Below, one piece after another: positions 2,638 to 57,456 of a DNA stretch of 64,000 nt. Both the position numbers and the translations under genes were made by a program. Under the pieces are notes generated by a model, which was not told where the DNA came from, ran no database searches, and was given only the letters and a program-made list of their open reading frames with translations. Within the stretch, counting starts at the first letter, position 1; each line of letters opens with the position of its first letter. The stretch lies in the NCBI GenBank assembly GCA_012338575.1, contig GCA_012338575.1_3616.1, one strand, 5' to 3'. The DNA comes from a phage.

Positions 2638-3261
2638 ATGACCACCGTTAACATTACCACAGGTTACAATTTATCTTTCGACGTGCTGACCGATGAACAA
2701 AAAGAAAAAGCTATTGAAATGGTCCGCGAAAGAGAAGAACACAGCGGGGATAACTTTTTTGCAGAAAGTGTAATTGAAGACTATAAAGAACATATCTTTC
2801 CAGAGTATGGCCTTGAAGATACCAAGGTACATTGGTCCGGATTTTGGTGCCAGGGTGACGGCGCGTCAATCAGTGCGGGAAACGTGGATTTAGAAAAATT
2901 CTTGCGTAAAGTCAAGTCTCTGACTAAATTCCGCTCAATTCGTCACTTGTTCGGCACAATGCACGATGGCGAACTATCCGCAAGTGTTGAGCGTGATCCA
3001 TATAGCCGCTATAGTCACGAAAACACTGTAAGCGGGTACATCGATACTACATGGCTAGATCTGACCGCCAAACAAGAAAACAAAGTGGAAGACCTGGAAG
3101 AACTGATCACCGAGACGGTACGGGAGCTATCCCGCAAGGTTTACGTAGACCTGGAGGAGGCCTATCTAGAACAGTTCACTACCGAAAACCTGATCGGCCT
3201 TATTGAGGCCAATGATTGGCGGTTTGATGTGGATGAATATGGAGAGATGAGTTTTTCATAA
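2638..3261 (+). CDS. hypothetical early protein (207 aa)
   Basis: ORF with SD ATAGGAGAAAA; largest early ORF, acidic. Confidence 0.6.
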   Translation: MTTVNITTGYNLSFDVLTDEQKEKAIEMVREREEHSGDNFFAESVIEDYKEHIFPEYGLEDTKVHWSGFWCQGDGASISAGNVDLEKFLRKVKSLTKFRSIRHLFGTMHDGELSASVERDPYSRYSHENTVSGYIDTTWLDLTAKQENKVEDLEELITETVRELSRKVYVDLEEAYLEQFTTENLIGLIEANDWRFDVDEYGEMSFS

Positions 3262-3269
3262 ATAAAGTG

Positions 3270-3297
3270 TTGCAATAATCTAAAAACCTGCTATATT
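3270..3297 (+). promoter_or_regulatory. sigma70-like promoter (TTGCAA ... TATATT)
   Basis: TTGCAA 3270-3275, TATATT about 16 bp downstream; leader hairpin GGGGGCAA-gacg-TTTGCCCC. Confidence 0.4.
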
Positions 3298-3351
3298 AAA
3301 ACTCAAGGGGGGCAAGACGTTTGCCCCACACAAAACAAAGAGGAAAACATT

Positions 3352-3732
3352 ATGAAAAACACTACTAAAGCTATTGACACCGTTATGTTTAACCTGGTTA
3401 CCTTTCGCGAGGATATGAAAGATCTTCCACGTGAAACAGTGTGCGATCACATTGAAAACTATCGCAAACTAATCAAAGAGTTGCCTTTAAAACGTGACCA
3501 GTATGCGGCTAACGCTATGCTCAACGCCATGATCAAAAAGATGATTCAGTGTGATTTAACCCTGGCCTATGATTATGCAGGTGGTCGTTTTGCAGTATAC
3601 AATCAGCCCGTGCCTGGTATGGGCACCACTGAAGAATTGCACGCGCTCAATCTAAAACAAGACGTGTGGGATAGTATGCCCCGCGTGGTGGTGTGGGCAG
3701 AAAGCGGAAAGATTTACGGCGATAATTTTTAA
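3352..3732 (+). CDS. hypothetical early protein (126 aa)
   Basis: ORF with SD AAGAGGAAAA. Confidence 0.55.
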   Translation: MKNTTKAIDTVMFNLVTFREDMKDLPRETVCDHIENYRKLIKELPLKRDQYAANAMLNAMIKKMIQCDLTLAYDYAGGRFAVYNQPVPGMGTTEELHALNLKQDVWDSMPRVVVWAESGKIYGDNF

Positions 3733-3742
3733 TCAGGTAACA

Positions 3743-3768
3743 GGCGGCATATTTGCCGCCTTATTGTT
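3743..3768 (+). terminator. rho-independent terminator
   Basis: GGCGGC-atattt-GCCGCC then TTATTGTT. Confidence 0.55.
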
Positions 3769-3796
3769 AAACAGAACTGCAAAAGAGGTACATAGA

Positions 3797-4168
3797 ATGG
3801 AATTTATTATTTTGGCCGTATTAGTTGCCTTGTTTAACGCCTGGATCGCTGGCAAGATGGGTAGATCCGCCTTTTTATGGTTTATTATATCTATTTTCCT
3901 GGGGGTGGTTGCAACTATTGTACTTGTTATCCTTGCAATTGTTGACAAAGGCGATAATAGAAAGGGTAAAGTATTTTCCGACCTGTATGACGCGCAAACA
4001 TTTGTCAACGCCTATTATAGTGATCTTCCAGTCTCCCTACGCTGCAGCCTTGCACAACAGGTTTTCGATGAAGCTAAAACCAGAGATCACGCCCATGAGA
4101 TTTGTTTAACTGAGGCGGATCGCCTATTTGAGAGGAATAGAAAATATGTGGGCCAGCCGTTTAAATAA
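3797..4168 (+). CDS. membrane protein (two predicted TM helices at N-terminus)
   Basis: ATG 3797 after AAAGAGG; MEFIILAVLVALFNAWIAG... hydrophobic. Confidence 0.5.
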   Translation: MEFIILAVLVALFNAWIAGKMGRSAFLWFIISIFLGVVATIVLVILAIVDKGDNRKGKVFSDLYDAQTFVNAYYSDLPVSLRCSLAQQVFDEAKTRDHAHEICLTEADRLFERNRKYVGQPFK

Positions 4169-4391
4169 TACCACGTTAATTAATCCCTTTGATGAAGATT
4201 TGAAGCCAGCCGCCTGGCGTGATGGATTCAATAACGAACGCTTTATTTTCAGGCCTGATCTTAAGGAATTTTGTAACAATGGATCGAACAACGACAGAGA
4301 TAATTTTTCTTGTGATGTGCGTGGTGATGGTACTCCTGGGGGCCATTGTAAACCACGTCACTACTACCAGGATGAAAGGGGGAGACGATGA
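4146..4391 (+). CDS. hypothetical protein (about 82 aa)
   Basis: ATG 4146 after GAGAGGAA; overlaps upstream stop. Confidence 0.4.
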   Translation: MWASRLNNTTLINPFDEDLKPAAWRDGFNNERFIFRPDLKEFCNNGSNNDRDNFSCDVRGDGTPGGHCKPRHYYQDERGRR

Positions 4392-28350: not shown

Positions 28351-29283
28351 TCATTTACCACAAATCTTCTTGTATACCTCTTCTACCGTGTCAAACACTT
28401 CAGGCCTGTAGTAGAAAAACTCAGTGCTACCGTCAAATTTTACAGGAAAGTTTATTTTATACTTGCTGAAGGCCTTATGCACAGATTTTTCTAAATCTAC
28501 CATGTTTTGAGTTGATCCGCTCCACGTTTTTACTACGTGAAGAGTGTGGACACCTGCGCCAGATTTACGAGCACTGTTAAGCACCTCATTTTTCCTCCTG
28601 TGCATTTTAACGCATACACCGATTTTCATAAGTGTTGGCACTTCTAAGTCATCAACCATAATGTAGAGTTTACCGTACTCATGAGATAAGAATCCATTTT
28701 GTGCGCATTTACAGCAGCCACGACCACTTTTTAGGTTATTAGGTTTAGCAGACCACTTATACCCACAAATTTTGCACCTACATTGCACTTTTGTGTTATC
28801 ATTGGTAATTTTCTCTAATATTTCTATGTCTGGGTTGGCTTTGTGGATAATTGCAGCATGCTCCTTATGGGTTAACGCTTGACTTTGCCCACGTCTTAAG
28901 TCATAGCACTCTGGGCAGCCGTTTCTTTGGTATAAGTGGTTTTCAGGGTATTGTTCAAACACACCGTGTTCAGGGCAAACAATTTTTACAGGCGTTCTCA
29001 TGTTCGCATATTTGACTAATGAGTAATCGTACTTGTCCCCATGAGCAGCCATAGCCTCTTTTATGAACTCTTCAGTGTTCTTTTTCGCTGACCCACCACA
29101 CCTTGGACAACCATGCTTCTTGAAAGCATGTGCCACAGGGGTTTGCCAGAACTCACCGTGCTCAGGACAAATTATACACACAGGTGTCTTGTTGTTTTTA
29201 TACTCCACTTTGAAGTAATCATATTTGTCACCATGTATAGTCTGAGCTTTTTCTATAAACTCTTCGGTTGTTAGTCTCCTCAT
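28351..29283 (-). CDS. free-standing homing-endonuclease-like protein (GIY-YIG/T5orf172-like C-terminal domain, duplicated N-terminal zinc-ribbon repeats)
   Basis: Two tandem repeats of HGDKYDY...CPEHG.F...GCP.C; C-terminus GKLYIMVDD..LMKIGV...GSTEFFYY resembles GIY-YIG-like T5orf172 pattern (family assignment from memory). Confidence 0.5.
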   Translation of the reverse strand: MRRLTTEEFIEKAQTIHGDKYDYFKVEYKNNKTPVCIICPEHGEFWQTPVAHAFKKHGCPRCGGSAKKNTEEFIKEAMAAHGDKYDYSLVKYANMRTPVKIVCPEHGVFEQYPENHLYQRNGCPECYDLRRGQSQALTHKEHAAIIHKANPDIEILEKITNDNTKVQCRCKICGYKWSAKPNNLKSGRGCCKCAQNGFLSHEYGKLYIMVDDLEVPTLMKIGVCVKMHRRKNEVLNSARKSGAGVHTLHVVKTWSGSTQNMVDLEKSVHKAFSKYKINFPVKFDGSTEFFYYRPEVFDTVEEVYKKICGK

Positions 29284-29393: not shown

Positions 29394-30671
29394 TTATTTA
29401 CTCAACGGACACCAGTCTACATTCCCAACATGTTTAACACGTTCGATAACCTCTGCTTGTTTACCTGTGTTATACGGTCTACTGTTCGGGCTGGAGAGAT
29501 AGCCAGACACTCTTCGGATCACTGAGATATATTGTTCATCGTGGCATCCGCACGCAGGGCAGCAGAACCCTTTAGCTGTTGCACTGAACTCACCAGAGAA
29601 ACCACACTTAAGACATTTATCCACAGGTTGGTTAATACCAAAATACATAATGTGTTTATACCCGAAGTCAACAAGAGCCTCTAAAGCATCTAAGTTGTTT
29701 TTCAGATTTGGTGTCTCTACATATCCGATGTTGCCACCAGAGGAGATCATAGCAAAACCTTCCTCATACGCCCACTTATCAAAAGGAGAGCTATTGATCC
29801 ATACTGGCTGATGGAAACTGTTGGTGAGATATTCATGCTCGTGCTTCAACACTTCAGGATATTCACGATCCAGACAGGTTGCAGCTTTATAGCATAGACT
29901 CTCAGAAGGGGTGCCGTACAAGCTAAACGCTAGTCTACTTTCCTTCTTGTATCGCTCACAAGCATCTCTCATGTGCTGAAGGATTCCAAGAGCTAAAGCC
30001 TTGTCACCCTCTCTGCCCAAAATCTGACAGGTTTCATACACACCGATATACCCAATACTGATGGAAGCGTACCCGTCATAGAAGAGTTTATCAATACTCT
30101 CTTCAGGATCCAGGCGGGCAAGAGCGCCTTCACACCACATGATGGGGTTCTGCCCTGCCTTTGTTCCTTTTAGACGGTTAACCCTTACAAGGTGAGCCTC
30201 GTATGCAAGATCCAAGTATTCGTCAAGAACCGCAAAGAAATCAACACCTTCCGTCTTAGCTTTTGCCGCAATCATTGGCAGGTTAAGGCTAACAACACCC
30301 AAGTTGAATCTGCCAAGGTATTTCTCCTCACCTGTTTCCAAGTCATTGTATTTGCTAAGAAAACTCCGGCAACCCATGCTCGTTACTTTGCCATCTGTCG
30401 AGCCTGTCACTTTTCTATTTAGTGGTACAGATACGAAGTCAGGGTAGATACGTTCTGCACAGCATTCCAGAGCTAATCGTTTCAAATCATAGTTAGGATC
30501 CCCAGGGTTCATGTTGACACCCTCTTCCAGGAAGAACAGCACTTTAGGGAACACAGGTGTAATACGTTCTTCACCAAGACCCATTTTGTGGACTTTCAAG
30601 TAGTTTTTGGTAATCATTCTACCAAAGACCGAGGTATCCAGTCCTAAACTTAATGTGATAAAAGGGGTTTG
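29394..30671 (-). CDS. nrdD: anaerobic ribonucleoside-triphosphate reductase, exon 2 (glycyl-radical domain)
   Basis: Begins QTPFITLSLGLDTS (cf. recalled E. coli QTPFVTFGFGLGTS); contains GDPNYD, C-rich zinc site and RVSGYL glycyl-radical motif. Confidence 0.8.
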   Translation of the reverse strand, partial: QTPFITLSLGLDTSVFGRMITKNYLKVHKMGLGEERITPVFPKVLFFLEEGVNMNPGDPNYDLKRLALECCAERIYPDFVSVPLNRKVTGSTDGKVTSMGCRSFLSKYNDLETGEEKYLGRFNLGVVSLNLPMIAAKAKTEGVDFFAVLDEYLDLAYEAHLVRVNRLKGTKAGQNPIMWCEGALARLDPEESIDKLFYDGYASISIGYIGVYETCQILGREGDKALALGILQHMRDACERYKKESRLAFSLYGTPSESLCYKAATCLDREYPEVLKHEHEYLTNSFHQPVWINSSPFDKWAYEEGFAMISSGGNIGYVETPNLKNNLDALEALVDFGYKHIMYFGINQPVDKCLKCGFSGEFSATAKGFCCPACGCHDEQYISVIRRVSGYLSSPNSRPYNTGKQAEVIERVKHVGNVDWCPLSK

Positions 30672-30928
30672 CGGTCCCCACCCTTATGTTTCCACAAGGC
30701 CAGACTATCTCTTGCCTGAAATCACACCGTGTGATTCTTAATCAGACCTCTGCGTTTCGGAATCTTCCATAATCCCTACACCAAAAGGTTAGTCGTTACA
30801 ACCGCCTCACTCCTTGTGAAGCTAGTCACGGGATTGGCATAGCTTTCGCCTTAGCGTTCCCCGTTAGCCAGCGATCAGCTGACCCCTCATACTGAGGTTA
30901 GCAGAGTTTTAAAACGGCCAGTTTGTTA
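30672..30928 (-). mobile_element. group I intron (ORF-less, td-like core) interrupting nrdD
   Basis: 257 nt with no ORF; exon 1 ends in T, intron ends in G; contains AACGGGGAAC, CAATCCCGTG, AACGACTA, CCGAAACG, GATAGTCTGG strings recalled from the T4 td intron core; splicing restores a 712-aa NrdD. Confidence 0.75.
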
Positions 30929-31789
30929 ACCGTTGACAGAAGTTAACGTATTGATTTGATAGAGCAAAGTCTGCATGCTGTCAAATACGTCTTTATCTGT
31001 CATTTGCATTGCAACAGTTTCGGCATCTGGCAACCAATGTTCCTGGCAAAATTTAAGGTTCTTCTCATAGGTTGCTTCAACATACTGTGCCAGATAATGA
31101 TCAATATGGCTCATAGTCTGACCACCATATTGAGCACTAGCTACCGCACTGGAGATTTGGCTAAGGATTGTTGTTGCAACCCCTATTGACTTCGGCTTAC
31201 TGACATGAGCGTTACCAATGTTGAATCCGTTTTCCAACATATCTGGATAGTTTACCAAACAACAGTTTGTTAACGGACTGATCAAGTAGTCAAGATCATG
31301 CACATGGATGAAGCCTTTATTGTGCTCTTCTGAGACACGGTCTGGCAGGATCTGTGTTGATGCAAGGTGTTTGCTAAGGATGCCTGCAAGCAGGTCACGA
31401 TGAGTGTGTACATGATTGGTAGGCTTATTTGCGTTTTCTTTTGTAAATTCATCACAAGTGCGATCCAAGAAGCCACTAATATCTGCAAGCAGTTTTCCAC
31501 CTGCCTCTCTGTTATTATCTCTTGTCTGCCTATACTGGATGTATTCTCTGGCTGCACATTTTAAACCCATATCCATAAGAGCGTCTTCAACAAGGATATG
31601 GATATTTTTTACAGAGATCGTGCACTGGTCGGTTGGTAGATTGTTAGCAACAACTTCATTAACCGCGCAGGCGATCCGGTAAGCTTCTTCTTCAGTATGT
31701 CCAGACTCAAGTAAGGCGGACTCTGCCGCCTTGATCACCTTAATTCCGTTATAGACCTCTTCTCTGCCGTCCCGTTTTACAACTTTCAC
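30929..31789 (-). CDS. nrdD: anaerobic ribonucleoside-triphosphate reductase, exon 1 (ATP-cone and N-terminal half)
   Basis: MKVVKRDGREEVYNGIKV ATP-cone; HDLDY, GFNIGNAHVSKPKSI; ends ...NTLTSVNG as in recalled E. coli ...NTLHTANG. Confidence 0.8.
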
Positions 31790-32064
31790 TTTTTCTCTCC
31801 AAAATCATTCTTAACAAAAGAGATGAAATCGTCGGCACCACCTACATGGACACTATCAAGATCGCTTTCTAAGAAGATCTGCGGTAACGTTCTTGGGACG
31901 ATTGGACTACACTTCTCAATAAGCTCTTCTTTTGTGTATCCATCTCCAAGTGTCTTATATACAAAAGGCAGACCTTTACTGACTGCAAATTCTTTTGCTC
32001 TTACACAATGTGGGCAGTCATCTTTACCGTAAATAATAAAGAAAAAAGATTTTTCACAGCTCAT
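31786..32064 (-). CDS. glutaredoxin-like protein (CPHC active site)
   Basis: YGKDDCPHCVRAKEF thioredoxin-fold motif; ATGA overlap with nrdD start. Confidence 0.65.
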   Translation of the reverse strand: MSCEKSFFFIIYGKDDCPHCVRAKEFAVSKGLPFVYKTLGDGYTKEELIEKCSPIVPRTLPQIFLESDLDSVHVGGADDFISFVKNDFGEKK

Positions 32065-32067
32065 ATA

Positions 32068-33156
32068 TTAAAACTCCCAAATTTCTTCTTCAGCGTCGTT
32101 AACAGTTGTGTTGACTCGGTAGTCGGTGTTCGACATTTCCTGGTTAGCCGTCTGTTGCAATGAAGGTTTCATCCACACCTGCATAAACGGTAGCGGGTCC
32201 TTTGTTGGCGGCACAAAATCTTTGTCGATGTCGTAGTAATCATAAATCGGTGAGCAGTTATAGTCAACCCATTCTTTAAGCAACGGTGAGTTAAGACCTA
32301 TAATCGCTCTTCCTTCGCTGAAAATATAGTCACTCCAACCGTACTCCTTGGTTCGTACTTCATCAAGAATCTCTTTTAACTCTCCCTTTATCTCAAGGAA
32401 GCTTTTCTCCCATGCTGGATCATTAAGCAGGATATCAATGATGGCAAAATCACCTTTCGAATGCAGCATTTCGTCAAGCATGATTTTTTGAACAAGCTGC
32501 GCCACCTGAACAAAAATACCCTGTTCAGCTACTGCGAAAGTGCATGCAAAACTTGCAATAAACTCAATACTTTCTAGAGCTAAAAGTGCAAAAAGCGCTC
32601 TAAGAATGCATTTCCGCACAGTATCTTCTTCAACACTAGAAGGATCCAGTCGATATTTTGCACCAATAATCTCAAGCTCTTGCATGTATTTGACAATAAC
32701 TCCAGATCTGCTCAGTACGTTCTGGTTTTCCTGAATCTCTTCTATAATCTCCCGAGCATTAGGAAGGCATTGTCTAACAATCTCTGAGTAGGTTAGTGCG
32801 TGAAGAACTTCAATCTCTGACTGTTTCATCAATAGAGTGAAAAGCTCACTATTAGTGATGAATGGTGAAAAGAGGCAGATGATCGATCTTGCCGCAACGC
32901 TATCAGCCTCCCATTGCCACATCAAGGTCTGCACCATCACGTCATAAGTTGACTTGGAGCATGTTACAAAATCTGAAATAGATTGCGACAAATCCACTTC
33001 ATCCTCTGCCCAGTCTTGTTCTTTTTGTTTTTTGTACAGTTCGAACAGTTGTGGATATTTTTTGTTAATAGAGTCGTACATACCCATTTGCTGTCCTAAA
33101 AACAGCGGATAGTCACCAGTTTTATGAGCAGTGTTCTCAGCATTAAATACAGCCAT
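32068..33156 (-). CDS. nrdB: ribonucleotide reductase class Ia beta subunit
   Basis: 362 aa; position after nrdA; di-iron/tyrosyl radical protein-like composition and C-terminal EEEIWEF tail. Confidence 0.7.
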   Translation of the reverse strand: MAVFNAENTAHKTGDYPLFLGQQMGMYDSINKKYPQLFELYKKQKEQDWAEDEVDLSQSISDFVTCSKSTYDVMVQTLMWQWEADSVAARSIICLFSPFITNSELFTLLMKQSEIEVLHALTYSEIVRQCLPNAREIIEEIQENQNVLSRSGVIVKYMQELEIIGAKYRLDPSSVEEDTVRKCILRALFALLALESIEFIASFACTFAVAEQGIFVQVAQLVQKIMLDEMLHSKGDFAIIDILLNDPAWEKSFLEIKGELKEILDEVRTKEYGWSDYIFSEGRAIIGLNSPLLKEWVDYNCSPIYDYYDIDKDFVPPTKDPLPFMQVWMKPSLQQTANQEMSNTDYRVNTTVNDAEEEIWEF

Positions 33157-33195: not shown

Positions 33196-35511
33196 TTACA
33201 GTGCACAGCTTTCGCAATACGGATCTTCAACTGAACTATCTGCAATCAAAGGATAGTTCTTTCTGGTTTCATCTTCAGCTTGTTTCTTGGCATGAAGTTC
33301 CTCTGCCAAGGAGTCACCAGCACCAACTCTGGAGTTTAAATAATACCATGTCTTCATCCCGAATTTAGTGGCACGGATAAGGTACCCTAGCTGCTCCTTC
33401 ATTGAAATTTTACCATCTTTCAACTTGGTGTAGTCTATGTATAAATCCGCGCTGATTGCCTGGCCTGTGAATTTTTGAATCACAGCGTACATATCGATCA
33501 TATCGTTAGTATCAACGTCCCAAGCCGAAGTGTAATACTCTTTCAGCTCATCGTATTCAGGAACGATAAACAGCACCTGCCCTTGTGGCGATTTTTTAAA
33601 GATAATGTGCTCACGGACAGGATAAACCCCGTTAGTGGTGTTTGTTGCCAGCGAAGAGCTTTCATTAGGCATATATGCTTCAAGAACGCTATTACGTAGC
33701 CCACCGTTTTCAATGATTTCTTTACGTAACCCTTCCCAATCCTGTTTAAGAGAAGGATCTTTCACCACGCTATCGACCTCTTTGTTATAGGTGTCGATTG
33801 GTAACCAACCTTCTGGATATTTTGTTTTATGCATCCACTCGCAGACACCACGCTCTTTTGCCAACCGTAAACTTGCCTTATGCAAGCTGTAGCTGTGAAG
33901 TTCTGCAAGATCGTGAACAAGCTGTTTACTTTCAGGAGATCCGTAAGTAATCTTGTGGCTGGCAATAAAATGTGCAACGTTGGTAAGGCCAACCCCGATG
34001 GATCTGCGTTTTTTAACAGTGCTCTCCATATTTTCATACGGATATGTCATGATTTCCATAACATTGTCAATCATAAGCACCGTGTAGTATGCAACATCCT
34101 CATACTCTTCTGGAGTAACCCTTCCAGCTACAAGGGATGACAGGAAGCACAATGCAACTTCGCCGTCATCAACATCGTGCTTGAAGATATTACGCATATC
34201 TGAATAGCCTTTTGTCGGGAGGGCTATTTCTGCACACAGGTTACTTGAATAGATCACATCTTTAAAAGGTGTATGTCTATTCATCTCGTCTGTCCAGTAT
34301 ACGTACAGCCTTCCAACCTCAGTACGCTGCGTGATCAGCTCAACAGCAAGATCTCTAGCTCGGATCCATGTTTTAGGAATACTATCATCTTTAGCTATAC
34401 GATCAACCTCTGCATCAAACTCCTCCATAGACATGGTGAAGATACCTTCATGCAGTTGAGGCGCGTGCTTATAAGAAACAAGCATCCAATCTAAATTCTT
34501 AGCCACACGGTTGATAAACGACCTATTAATACCTATAGAGTAGTCCATGGTGTTGATTCTTTTTGAAGCAACAGTCATAGGGTTTCTCAAACGGATTAGC
34601 TCATCAATCTGCGGGTCTAGTGCAAGAAATGATACTGTTGCAGAACCGCCACGTGATTGTTGTCTGTTCTCCTTAACCCCAGCATCAATACCTCGATAAT
34701 ATGGAATCTTACCCATATGTTTAATAGTGTTACCACGAACACCATCGCCTGCAGATCTTGATGATAAATAGTAGCCGATACCTGCTTGGTTAACCGTCAT
34801 TGTGTACGCAACTTCACGTGCCACACCAATAGATTTTGCTGTATCGTCAGCTTTTATTACACAACAAGATGCATACCCTGTCTTACCTGTGCGCAGCCCG
34901 TTTAAGTACGGTGTCGGGGCATTGATCTTTAAGTCGGACAGATAAGTGTATAATTTTACAACATCGTTGATACGACGTTCTTTCGGCATATTCTTCATGA
35001 CAGCCATTGCTATCCCCATAAACATCATCTGAGGAGATTCAAACAAGGTGTCTTTAAGAGTATCCTTGATCCCGTATTTGTCGCGAAACTGTTTAAGGAC
35101 TGCATAGCCATAACCGAGATCTTTACTGTGATCAATAACAGTGCCTAAAGTGTTTAACTCGGTAAAGCTATAACCCATATCCTCCCAATACCCTTTCTCA
35201 ACCATGTCGTTGTAAAATGATGGTAAGGAAGGGATCTTTGTAAACCCTCCAAAAGCCTCTTTATAAATCTGACCAATAAGAACACGACCAGCCATACGGG
35301 AATGTGCTTCGTCTTTACGGCTAACACAGGAGTCTATAATAGCTTGGTTAACTTCTTTGGTTGTACATCCATCATACAGTCGTTTGTATGCATCCAGTGC
35401 AATATGTGACCAATTGCCGTTACCGTCGTCACCGAAAATAGCTGCCTTATTTAAACGTTCTGGATCGAATGCCACTTCACATCCGTTACTTTTAATTACC
35501 TTGGTGATCAA
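33196..35511 (-). CDS. nrdA: ribonucleotide reductase class Ia alpha subunit
   Basis: 771 aa; N-terminal ATP-cone (VIKSNGCEVAFDPERL); catalytic NLCAEIALPT motif. Confidence 0.85.
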   Translation of the reverse strand: MITKVIKSNGCEVAFDPERLNKAAIFGDDGNGNWSHIALDAYKRLYDGCTTKEVNQAIIDSCVSRKDEAHSRMAGRVLIGQIYKEAFGGFTKIPSLPSFYNDMVEKGYWEDMGYSFTELNTLGTVIDHSKDLGYGYAVLKQFRDKYGIKDTLKDTLFESPQMMFMGIAMAVMKNMPKERRINDVVKLYTYLSDLKINAPTPYLNGLRTGKTGYASCCVIKADDTAKSIGVAREVAYTMTVNQAGIGYYLSSRSAGDGVRGNTIKHMGKIPYYRGIDAGVKENRQQSRGGSATVSFLALDPQIDELIRLRNPMTVASKRINTMDYSIGINRSFINRVAKNLDWMLVSYKHAPQLHEGIFTMSMEEFDAEVDRIAKDDSIPKTWIRARDLAVELITQRTEVGRLYVYWTDEMNRHTPFKDVIYSSNLCAEIALPTKGYSDMRNIFKHDVDDGEVALCFLSSLVAGRVTPEEYEDVAYYTVLMIDNVMEIMTYPYENMESTVKKRRSIGVGLTNVAHFIASHKITYGSPESKQLVHDLAELHSYSLHKASLRLAKERGVCEWMHKTKYPEGWLPIDTYNKEVDSVVKDPSLKQDWEGLRKEIIENGGLRNSVLEAYMPNESSSLATNTTNGVYPVREHIIFKKSPQGQVLFIVPEYDELKEYYTSAWDVDTNDMIDMYAVIQKFTGQAISADLYIDYTKLKDGKISMKEQLGYLIRATKFGMKTWYYLNSRVGAGDSLAEELHAKKQAEDETRKNYPLIADSSVEDPYCESCAL

Positions 35512-54668: not shown

Positions 54669-54743
54669 GCCCTGTTAGCTTAGTGGATAAAGCAGCGGCC
54701 TTCTAAGCCGTTGACACTGGTTCGAGTCCAGTACGGGGTGCCA
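54669..54743 (+). tRNA. tRNA-Arg (anticodon TCT)
   Basis: Manually folded cloverleaf: acceptor GCCCTGT/ACGGGGT, D-arm GCTT-AGTGGATA-AAGC, anticodon loop CTTCTAA, T-arm ACTGG-TTCGAGT-CCAGT, CCA encoded. Confidence 0.8.
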
Positions 54744-54873
54744 AGTTCTTTTTAATGTAGCTTACTTTAGCAGAGTAAATCTTCGGCAAGTGGCGGTAAC
54801 CACTTTACCGATACCTCATAGTTAGTGGTGAGAACACTAGCTATTTTAAAAAGAATTTAAATATTAGTATTTA

Positions 54874-54961
54874 GGTGAGTTAATTCCGTAGGGGTAGCGG
54901 GGCAGACTGTAAATCTGTTATCATTGCGATTCGGGTGGTTCGACTCCATCACTCACCACCA
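54874..54961 (+). tRNA. tRNA-Tyr (anticodon GTA), long variable arm
   Basis: Acceptor GGTGAGT/ACTCACC, anticodon loop CTGTAAA, T-loop GGTTCGACTCC, CCA encoded; 85 nt plus CCA. Confidence 0.8.
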
Positions 54962-55075
54962 AATTTATATTTTTAAATGCATAAATCATACAGGTAATGG
55001 CATTGATATTTATCGTCGTTTATACTAGTCACTAACTGCTCGAAAATCAGTGTCATTATCAGTATTGTTTATAAA

Positions 55076-55166
55076 AGAGGGTAGGGAGCAATGGTGCTCA
55101 AGCGGTCTTGAAAACCGTCCCGTTGAGGATGACTCGATGATGGTTCGATTCCATTATCCTCTGCCA
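55076..55166 (+). tRNA. tRNA-Ser (anticodon TGA), long variable arm
   Basis: Acceptor AGAGGGT/ATCCTCT, anticodon loop CTTGAAA, T-arm GATGG-TTCGATT-CCATT, CCA encoded. Confidence 0.75.
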
Positions 55167-55264
55167 TATTGTTGACCTTGTAATTAAGCGAAAGCCGGAA
55201 GCAGAACCGGATTATCAAATGTTACAGTCGTCATCGCCGACTAGCAACATGGTCAACATACTGA

Positions 55265-55361
55265 GCTAGGTAAGCCCTTTGGCAAGGGCGAGGATTTTTA
55301 ATCCTGAAAATAGACGAGGTAGTCGTTGAATACATAGGTGGTTCGATTCCATCACCTAGCA
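55265..55361 (+). other. aberrant tRNA-like element (canonical acceptor, D- and T-arms; anticodon region replaced/expanded)
   Basis: Acceptor GCTAGGT/ACCTAGC, D-arm GCCC-TTTGGCAA-GGGC, T-arm GGTGG-TTCGATT-CCATC, but middle is AGGATT-TTT-AATCCT hairpin plus about 30 extra nt; no encoded CCA. Confidence 0.4.
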
Positions 55362-55368
55362 CCTTTTT

Positions 55369-55444
55369 GCTGATGTAGCACAATTGGTAGTGCAATTGAT
55401 TTGTAATCAATAGGTTGCAGGTTCAAGTCCTGCCATCAGCACCA
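55369..55444 (+). tRNA. tRNA-Thr (anticodon TGT)
   Basis: Acceptor GCTGATG/CATCAGC, D-arm GCAC-AATTGGTA-GTGC, anticodon stem ATTGA/TCAAT loop TTTGTAA, T-arm GCAGG-TTCAAGT-CCTGC, CCA. Confidence 0.85.
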
Positions 55445-55445
55445 T

Positions 55446-55520
55446 GGCCCTGTAGCTGGAAGGTTCAAGCAAGCGACTCATAATCGCCAGACGGTGGTTC
55501 AATTCCACCCAGGGCCACCA
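55446..55520 (+). tRNA. tRNA-Met (anticodon CAT; elongator or Ile2-type)
   Basis: Acceptor GGCCCTG/CAGGGCC, anticodon loop CTCATAA, T-arm GGTGG-TTCAATT-CCACC, CCA; paired 1:72 argues against initiator. Confidence 0.75.
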
Positions 55521-55531
55521 AATAGTAAATA

Positions 55532-55608
55532 CTCCGCGTAGCTCAGCTTGGTAGAGCGCCTGATTTGGGATCAGGAGGTCGAGTGTTCGAATCACTCCGT
55601 GGAGACCA
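55532..55608 (+). tRNA. tRNA-Pro (anticodon TGG)
   Basis: Acceptor CTCCGCG/CGTGGAG, D-arm GCTC-AGCTTGGTA-GAGC, anticodon stem CCTGA/TCAGG loop TTTGGGA, T-arm GAGTG-TTCGAAT-CACTC, CCA. Confidence 0.85.
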
Positions 55609-57137: not shown

Positions 57138-57456
57138 TAATTTGTAGCTCTCGTAAAACCTCCCTAATTGCGGGGAAATCTTTATTATTGACACCACCAA
57201 CCTGTTATGGTAACATGATAGAGGCTTCGAAGAGAGATCGAAGGTATGGTAACAGTGTGTTAATTTAGATAATCCGCAGCGAAGCATCCGAGGGGATGAA
57301 CGTTCAACGACTAGTCGAAAGACGTAGAATCAAGCGATTCGAAACGGGAGGGTAAGCGGTTGTTGTCGCTTATAAGATATAGTCTGGTCTGCATGGAGAC
57401 ATGCAGCTGCCTGAAAATGGCGGGGCAAGACTAGCGACCTTGCCCGAACATAAACG
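57138..57456 (+). mobile_element. group I intron (ORF-less, td-like) interrupting terminase large subunit gene
   Basis: 319 nt without ORF; begins TAATTTG after exon T, ends ...GAACATAAACG; contains AGTCTGGTCTGCATGGAGACATGCAGCTG, AACGACTA, CGAAACG strings recalled from T4 td intron; splicing 57137/57457 is in frame. Confidence 0.75.

Follow-up and report, generated by a model that had tools for sequence, protein, structure and literature searches.

The extra pairings P7.1 and P7.2 are features of IA2 group I introns (PMC4227781), and in a 2025 study the IA2 introns of phages were noted to be heterogeneous and the Rfam model RF00028 to be incomplete (PMC11878797). The IA2 prototype is the td intron of phage T4, which contains a P2 helix, follows the order P2-P3-UAAA-P4, ends in a P9.1/P9.2 tail and carries I-TevI in P6a. 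The T4 nrdD gene also contains an intron (sunY), which is 1033 nt long, encodes I-TevII and, like the intron described here, has no P2. For the rV5-like phages, the rV5 genome paper of Kropinski et al. (2013) describes terminase introns only (PMC3606486), and the BASEL paper used comparative genomics for intron boundaries (PMC8594841).

Here we analyse a 64,000-nt stretch of phage DNA (the window), in which the nrdD gene is interrupted on the minus strand at positions 30672-30928. We are confident that this interruption is a phage IA2 (T4 td-like) self-splicing group I intron, placed between Gly287 and Gln288 of the protein. It is an ordinary kind of element, unpublished and already annotated. 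The same intron is present at the same site, with 99.2-99.6% identity over 257 nt, in the BASEL phages RudolfGeigy (MZ501102), HeinrichReichert and AlexBoehm and in CM1, navn, nom and others, and in the GenBank records of the BASEL phages, among them RudolfGeigy, nrdD is annotated as a two-piece join. Splicing the RudolfGeigy gene at the boundaries used here gives the identical product of NCBI entries QXV84261.1, QXV79969.1 and QXV75731.1, so that public gene models already contain this junction. No paper describing the nrdD ribozyme was found in the searchable literature.

The nrdD gene and its insertion site

The source of the window is a Vequintavirus, i.e. an rV5-like coliphage; in the nrdD region it shares 97% identity with Shigella phage CM1 and with Escherichia phages navn and RudolfGeigy (among 121 matching records). 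On the minus strand, nrdA (33196-35511), nrdB (32068-33156) and a glutaredoxin gene (31786-32064) are followed by nrdD. The first nrdD ORF (30926-31789, minus strand) terminates in ...NTLTSVNG and then TAA, and the frame resumes at 30671 with QTPFITLSLGLDTS (QTPFITLSLG...). The gap between them (30672-30928, minus strand) is exactly 257 nt long, and the ORF listing contains no coding-strand ORF of 40 aa or more within it. The joined parts amount to 2139 nt, i.e. 712 codons plus a stop. The initial annotation had read these two minus-strand ORFs as a single gene interrupted by 257 noncoding nucleotides and yielding a spliced protein of 712 aa, and both the ORFs and the alignment with phage PMBT16 given below bear this out. 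The parts of the gene are as follows.

30929-31789, minus strand: nrdD exon 1, with a GTG start, the ATP-cone and the N-terminal part of the NRDD domain; its 3' end is ...AAC GGT
30672-30928, minus strand: group I intron of 257 nt without an ORF, with UAA (an in-frame stop) at its 5' end and ...ACCG at its 3' end
29394-30671, minus strand: nrdD exon 2, with 5' end CAA ACC CCT (QTP...), holding the glycyl-radical domain

The Pfam NRDD model is divided over the two ORFs: exon 1 contains an ATP-cone at residues 1-91 (E 1.7e-14) followed by NRDD model positions 1-154, and exon 2 contains NRDD model positions 156-562 and Gly_radical. As references for collinearity we used T4 NrdD, the structure of which has been solved, and the intron-less allele. 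Residues 103-701 of the spliced product align with T4 NrdD (PDB 1h78) with an E value of 3.5e-168 and without a gap at ...TSVNG/QTPF... (here and below a slash marks a junction or insertion point). Once 30672-30928 has been removed, the gene aligns without gaps to the uninterrupted 2139-nt nrdD of PMBT16, matching it at 2091/2139 nt and 709/713 aa, so that precise excision restores an uninterrupted conserved frame. Only four of the 48 exon differences from PMBT16 change an amino acid and the other 44 are synonymous; nrdD is therefore under purifying selection. The BASEL gene models begin at an internal ATG (MDMGLK...) and so lack the ATP-cone, which the GTG start at 31789 keeps (window 31576-31789, minus strand, compared with L002 position 1714).

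We determined the occupancy of the site by BLAST of a 160-nt probe, spanning the empty junction, against phage records. The site was empty in 76 of 115 records, and in the interrupted genomes the match was broken at probe position 79/80, i.e. at the junction. The 257-nt intron was present in 14 records with at least 99% identity, and about 29 records contained a 798-nt relative (the FFH2/FV3 type) at the identical site. Between 16 and 19 GenBank records labelled 'Campylobacter phage' (A147, A135, C2 and others, with Campylobacter jejuni as host) are 90-97% identical to the E. coli vequintavirus nrdD, which suggests a mis-assigned host or contamination.

The DNA comparison alone leaves a one-base ambiguity in the position of the insertion, which can be read either as GG(T...CCG)CAA or as GG(TTAAC...ACC)GCAA, with the inserted bases in brackets. 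Group I introns are preceded by a U at the 5' splice site and end in a G, and the first register was chosen because it is the only one of the two that satisfies both rules. The flanks of the junction are GGG/CAAACTCCATTC in the empty allele and GGT...CAAACCCCTTTT in the intron-bearing allele; the exon ends in GGT in both types of intron-bearing allele and in GGG in the empty one. At its 3' end the intron reads ...GGGGACCG/CAA, with G as its last nucleotide, and the FFH2 type reads ...GAGACAG/CAG. The first intron codon is an in-frame UAA, as in T4 td. The earlier proposal of a td-like group I intron with the boundaries 30672-30928 is supported by the intron-less allele, the collinearity, the splice-site rules and the covariation described below.

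A 310-aa ORF just downstream of nrdD (28351-29283, minus strand) combines a pair of DUF723 repeats and a CapR/DUF4379 zinc finger with a T5orf172 (GIY-YIG-like) domain at its C terminus, and it looks like a free-standing homing endonuclease. It was found in navn, JEP1 and PMBT16 (shorter there) and is absent from RudolfGeigy and FFH2; its presence or absence does not strictly track that of the nrdD intron. The final ~37 nt of nrdD differ between phages with and without this ORF, as expected for insertion of the ORF with flanking conversion.

Secondary structure and the two-hairpin insert

The elements assigned within the intron and at its borders are listed in the order of the transcript.

30927-30934, minus strand: P1 5' strand, exon AACGGU plus intron UA, with the 5' splice site after U30929 and a U30929.G30918 wobble
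30913-30920, minus strand: P1 3' strand, the internal guide sequence UGGCCGUU
30901-30906, minus strand: P3 5' strand CUCUGC, directly after P1 with no P2; the FFH2 pair is CUCUCC/GGAGAG
30885-30897, minus strand: hairpin A (CCUCA-GUA-UGAGG), between P3 and P4; recognisable in 34/39 distinct family sequences
30867-30883, minus strand: hairpin B (GUCAGC-UGAUC-GCUGGC), between P3 and P4, followed by UAA (J3/4)
30859-30864, minus strand: P4 5' strand ACGGGG, identical in T4 td
30837-30855, minus strand: P5/P5a hairpin with a GAAA tetraloop
30828-30833, minus strand: P4 3' strand UCCCGU, inside CAAUCCCGUG, identical in T4 td
30804-30822, minus strand: P6 hairpin GCUUCAC/GUGAGGC
30790-30794, minus strand: P7 5' strand GACUA, inside AACGACUA; guanosine-binding helix, pseudoknotted with P3
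30780-30789, minus strand: P7.1 hairpin ACC-UUUU-GGU; in L128 an A>G change gives a G.U pair
30759-30776, minus strand: P7.2 hairpin GGGAUU/GAUUCC, with a conserved GUAG 5' of it; an analogous hairpin is present in the FFH2, L053 and T4 introns
30748-30753, minus strand: P3 3' strand GCAGAG, with the conserved CGAAAC directly 5' of it; the same order of CGAAAC and P3 3' strand is found in T4 td and sunY
30714-30747, minus strand: P8, a two-part stem (GUCUGA/UCAGGC and AAUCACA/UGUGAUU); the homologous loop of the FFH2 type holds an HNH ORF
30703-30707, minus strand: P7 3' strand UAGUC, inside AAGAGAUAGUCUGG
30682-30699, minus strand: P9 hairpin CCUUGUG-GAAA-CAUAAGG, with a GAAA loop
30664-30679, minus strand: 4-bp helix that bridges the 3' splice site and pairs GGGG of the intron (30676-30679) with CCCC of exon 2 (30664-30667)
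30672, minus strand: terminal G (omega-G), with the 3' splice site directly after it

The MFE fold has an energy of -100.7 kcal/mol, compared with -79.9 +/- 4.8 for shuffled sequences (z = -4.3), and independently recovers every assigned helix apart from P7, the partner of P3 in the pseudoknot. The intron does not follow the conventional IA2 order of P1-(P2)-P3-short J3/4-P4: the 5' strand of P3 abuts P1, P2 is absent, and two hairpins (30867-30897) part P3 from the UAA and P4. The IA2 extra pairings P7.1 and P7.2 are present between P7 and the 3' strand of P3, with GUAG and CGAAAC flanks as in T4. After P9 there is a tail of 10 nt only, which ends in G, and the extended P9 domain (P9.0, P9.1 and P9.2) is absent. 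The helix over the 3' splice site is GGAG/CUCC in the FFH2 type, a compensatory change. Exon 2 (CAAACC) showed no complementarity to the guide region (UAACAAACUG) from which a P10 pairing could form. The motif CUAAC flanks the two-hairpin insert on both sides (CUCUGCUAAC... and ...GCUGGCUAACGGGG; 30867-30906, minus strand), which could be a trace of the origin of the insert or a coincidence.

Covariation was counted only in the helices that MAFFT had aligned correctly; P7.1-P8 and the 3' strand of P3 were kept out of the formal pair count because alignment A2 misregisters them between the intron types. Over six variants, which are few and related and include the one from which the structure was derived, 95.4% of the paired cells were paired, compared with 30-48% when the partners were slid. 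Changes on both sides were seen in 10 pairs in these six variants; the shuffle mean was 4.2 and none of the 500 shuffles reached ten. Two compensatory pairs each were found in P1 (helix 1, 97.9% paired), hairpin B (helix 3, 100% paired) and P5/P5a (helices 5 and 6, 100% paired), and one each in P6 (helix 7, 89% paired, with one-sided variation in three further pairs) and P9 (helix 9, 92.7% paired). P4 and P7 are uninformative for covariation because they are invariant. Among near-identical copies of the intron, all substitutions either fall in loops or turn a Watson-Crick pair into a wobble.

In alignment A3 the sub-families are out of register by 3-4 columns at P3, and the strands of this helix were therefore defined by position instead: the 5' strand as the 6 nt whose last base lies 3 nt before hairpin A, and the 3' strand as the 6 nt that follow CGAAAY. 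Over 10 distinct haplotypes, comprising the nrdD intron and unrelated metagenomic relatives, 51 of the 60 P3 pairs were canonical, whereas the permutation mean was 31.6 (0/20000 permutations reached 51) and slid registers gave 21-34. The variants of P3 include CUCUGC/GCAGAG, CUCUCC/GGAGAG, AUAUCU/GGAUAU, CAUCUC/GGGAUG, ACACU/GGUGU and AUGUU/GGCAU. In the stem of hairpin B, pairs 4 and 5 were canonical in 39/39 and 38/38 sequences, with five and four pair types respectively.

A local search of 501 nt with permissive filters matched the nrdD intron to RF00028 over its full length (model positions 1-253) with 29.2 bits and an E value of 1.4e-5, which is below the curated gathering score of 50; the scan of this region that the initial annotation had named as a check thus stayed under the threshold. 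Likewise, in an Rfam scan of the whole 64 kb at the gathering threshold the nrdD intron was absent, the matches being the terL intron and tRNAs only. The tRNA genes form a cluster of six (54669-55605, plus strand; RF00005), two of which are weak matches (39 and 35.5 bits). The RF00028 score of the nrdD intron is low because the two-hairpin insert makes the model mis-assign P3. Of nine two-hairpin introns scored (the nrdD intron and eight others) none reached the threshold, and a conventional intron in the same set scored 70.5 bits. Automated phage and virome surveys are therefore likely to undercount such introns.

The td-like P4-P5-P4' signature, used as a search pattern against IMG/VR, gave at least 120 matches, and about 50 of the 120 uncultured-phage matches listed have the two-hairpin architecture; the insert between P3 and P4 is missing from T4 td, sunY and nrdB. 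The largest two-hairpin group in IMG/VR (L008-L010, L020, L028, L030, L066, L122, L124 and others) interrupts a gene at ...DITAPLYW/..., and the protein encoded upstream of this point (...HRKFMRMITVYVDITAPLYW) is a putative flavin-dependent thymidylate synthase ThyX, which it resembles. Three further searches returned little: a motif-anchored set (A[AC]GACTA) contained only eight sequences because P7 differs among the sub-families, an exact-pattern scan of IMG/VR with the P4-P5 segment added one further vequintavirus contig only, and BLAST of cultured phages with two-hairpin representatives gave partial matches only, to Enterococcus phages and Lak megaphages. A description of the insert was not found in the searchable literature, a scope that leaves out subscription journals and does not by itself prove novelty. 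A tentative reading, which we put forward as possible but rather doubtful, is that the two hairpins together with the lack of P2 define an undescribed subclass, abundant in uncultured phages, the ORF-less form of which spreads by trans or collaborative homing. If this were true, the vequintavirus nrdD intron would be the most tractable representative of the subclass in a cultured coliphage.

Splicing, rival explanations and persistence

The established chemistry of group I introns provides the steps by which this intron would be removed. The exon end AACGGU would pair with the guide UGGCCGUU to form P1, in which the U.G wobble would mark the cleavage site, and a free guanosine bound in P7 would attack after U30929. 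The terminal G30672 would then take the place of the guanosine in the binding site, and the 3'-OH of exon 1 would attack after G30672, joining GGU to CAA and giving an mRNA for the 712-aa NrdD. The UAA at the start of the intron would halt ribosomes on unspliced RNA. The sequences show the boundaries, the helices, their covariation and the polymorphism among phages, whereas catalysis, splicing in vivo and the manner of spread are inferred; the intron is almost certainly splicing-competent. RNA evidence for this nrdD intron (RT-PCR, RNA-seq or in vitro splicing) was not found for any phage in the searchable literature.

Many GenBank records do contain separate nrdD CDSs, and the insert might accordingly be dead and non-splicing, with NrdD produced as two polypeptides that assemble after translation. 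We consider this very unlikely. It has a precedent in the NrdA of Aeromonas phage Aeh1, which, as cited in PMC7344957, is split by mobE without splicing and assembles from two polypeptides, and an ATG is available in the exon-2 frame at 30617. However, this ATG lies 18 codons into exon 2, and a product started there would therefore lose QTPFITLSLGLDTSVFGR, a conserved block that can be aligned with T4 NrdD. A split gene would also leave unexplained the complete ribozyme fold, which is supported by covariation and in which the few substitutions all preserve pairing, and the conservation, in the two intron types, of a U at -1 and of a G as the last intron base. Most vequintavirus records give two or three 'NrdD' CDSs with 'HNH' or hypothetical genes between them, where one spliced 712-aa protein would be correct.

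It is similarly hard to credit that the intron has decayed and no longer splices, in which case nrdD would be a pseudogene wherever the element is present. The sub-threshold Rfam score, the lack of an endonuclease ORF and the failure to detect P10 would fit decay, but the exons are under strong purifying selection (four amino-acid changes among 48 nucleotide differences), the intron is conserved at 99% or more over 14 independent isolates, and the two-hairpin insert accounts for the low Rfam score, with 9/9 of the introns tested that have this architecture falling below the threshold. Another kind of recoding or processing, i.e. an intein or translational bypassing like that of T4 gene 60, has a negligible probability and no specific evidence in its favour: bypassing-type devices are known in T4-like phages, but a gap of 257 nt is far longer than bypassing is known to span, the insert adopts the fold of a group I ribozyme, and it opens with a stop codon and contains in-frame stops and is therefore no intein.

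The self-splicing group I intron of the window has a close relative in the FFH2/FV3 type, which occupies the identical insertion site, after the same GGT exon end, in about 29 Vequintavirus records. The two match at 86.7% of the first 141 nt and resemble each other in the last ~45 nt, and the FFH2 type is the same as the window intron in P1, P3, the two hairpins, P4-P7 and P9, with compensatory changes. The FFH2 type is, however, 798 nt long, its P7.1, P7.2 and P8 are unrelated in sequence to those of the window intron, and its P8 loop (stem CUCUAU/GUAGAG) contains a 177-aa ORF of the HNH_3 / I-HmuI-like kind. Since the sequences of P7.1, P7.2 and P8 differ, the window intron is a sister form and no simple deletion derivative of the FFH2 type.

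The window intron carries no endonuclease ORF and is therefore incapable of self-driven homing. Vertical inheritance, together with recombination during mixed infections, is the most likely reason for its persistence, and it may also be mobilised in trans by the HNH enzyme of the same-site sister intron. The helper could be this enzyme or the free-standing T5orf172/DUF723 gene downstream of nrdD. Precedents for trans-mobilisation are given in reviews (PMC2988022, PMC3984707). Four of the substitutions relative to the empty allele (positions 861, 867, 870 and 873 of the spliced gene) lie within +/-15 nt of the junction, compared with 0.67 expected (P~0.005). This clustering fits co-conversion, immunity of the endonuclease site, or selection that favours a U at -1 and the small helix spanning the 3' splice site.

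Comparison with the terminase and T4 introns

The window contains an intron in terL as well (57138-57456, plus strand), which scores 83.6 bits against RF00028. It is ORF-less and of IA2 type without P2, has a conventional architecture and, like td, ends in a P9.1/P9.2 tail, with GAACAUAAACG at its 3' terminus. It matches the published rV5 terminase introns, although the window has a single intron there and no endonuclease ORF. A MAFFT alignment of the two window introns (A1) was uninformative, and we therefore compared eight introns by pairwise global alignment scored against shuffles. The nrdD and terL introns proved to be the least similar pair among the eight (60% identity, z 3-4). For the nrdD intron, z was 20-26 with the FFH2 type, 10 with L053 (metagenomic) and 6-8 with the T4 introns. 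The initial annotation had regarded the two window introns as related and as a sign of intron spread, which this result does not support. It had also quoted five core strings as common to both; all five do lie in the nrdD gap (intron positions 64, 93, 132, 169 and 220), but only AACGACTA is found in the terL intron. Three of the five are unique in the 64-kb window on both strands, and three are also present in T4 td.

Some vequintaviruses have a second nrdD intron at ...TSMG/CRSF..., in the active-site block of exon 2, which is absent from the window. It exists in an ORF-less form (L128, ~2246-2500) and in an HNH-bearing form (L004 JEP1, ~3468-4217; L005 navn, ~2928-3677), and it scores 70.5 bits against RF00028. 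Its core shares 82% identity with T4 sunY and 76% with T4 td. This second-site intron is the genuine relative of sunY in vequintaviruses. The nrdD gene of the rV5-like phages thus has two independent intron sites, each with ORF-less and HNH forms, beside empty alleles. As these are well-studied, culturable E. coli phages, they offer a convenient natural system for homing, for ORF-less trans-mobilisation and for the gain and loss of endonucleases. The understanding of how group I introns function is unchanged by these results.

The core of the window intron is identical to that of T4 td in the P4 strands (AACGGGGAAC and CAAUCCCGUG) and in AACGACUA, and T4 td likewise has P7.1, P7.2, CGAAAC before the 3' strand of P3 and a UAA right after the 5' splice site. 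The P4, P7 and J8/7 strings of the nrdD intron are common to td and sunY. The nrdD intron nevertheless differs from td in the P2 helix, the order P2-P3-UAAA-P4, the P9.1/P9.2 tail and the I-TevI gene in P6a, all of which td has, and in residing in another gene, and overall the two are 59% identical (z 6-7).

The T4 nrdD intron, which the initial annotation had mentioned, does exist in the same gene and in the same conserved block (...NTL.S.NG QTPF...), but its insertion site is different. It follows nt 538, inside the Tyr codon of AYE-Y-EVNTLFSSNG/QTPF, 32 nt upstream of the position homologous to the window site (the slash), and T4 nrdD thereby adds a third intron site to the two of the vequintaviruses. 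sunY has no hairpins between P3 and P4 and is 58% identical to the window intron (z 6-8). With a different site and similarity at the level of the core only, the nrdD intron of the window is not an ortholog of the T4 sunY intron.
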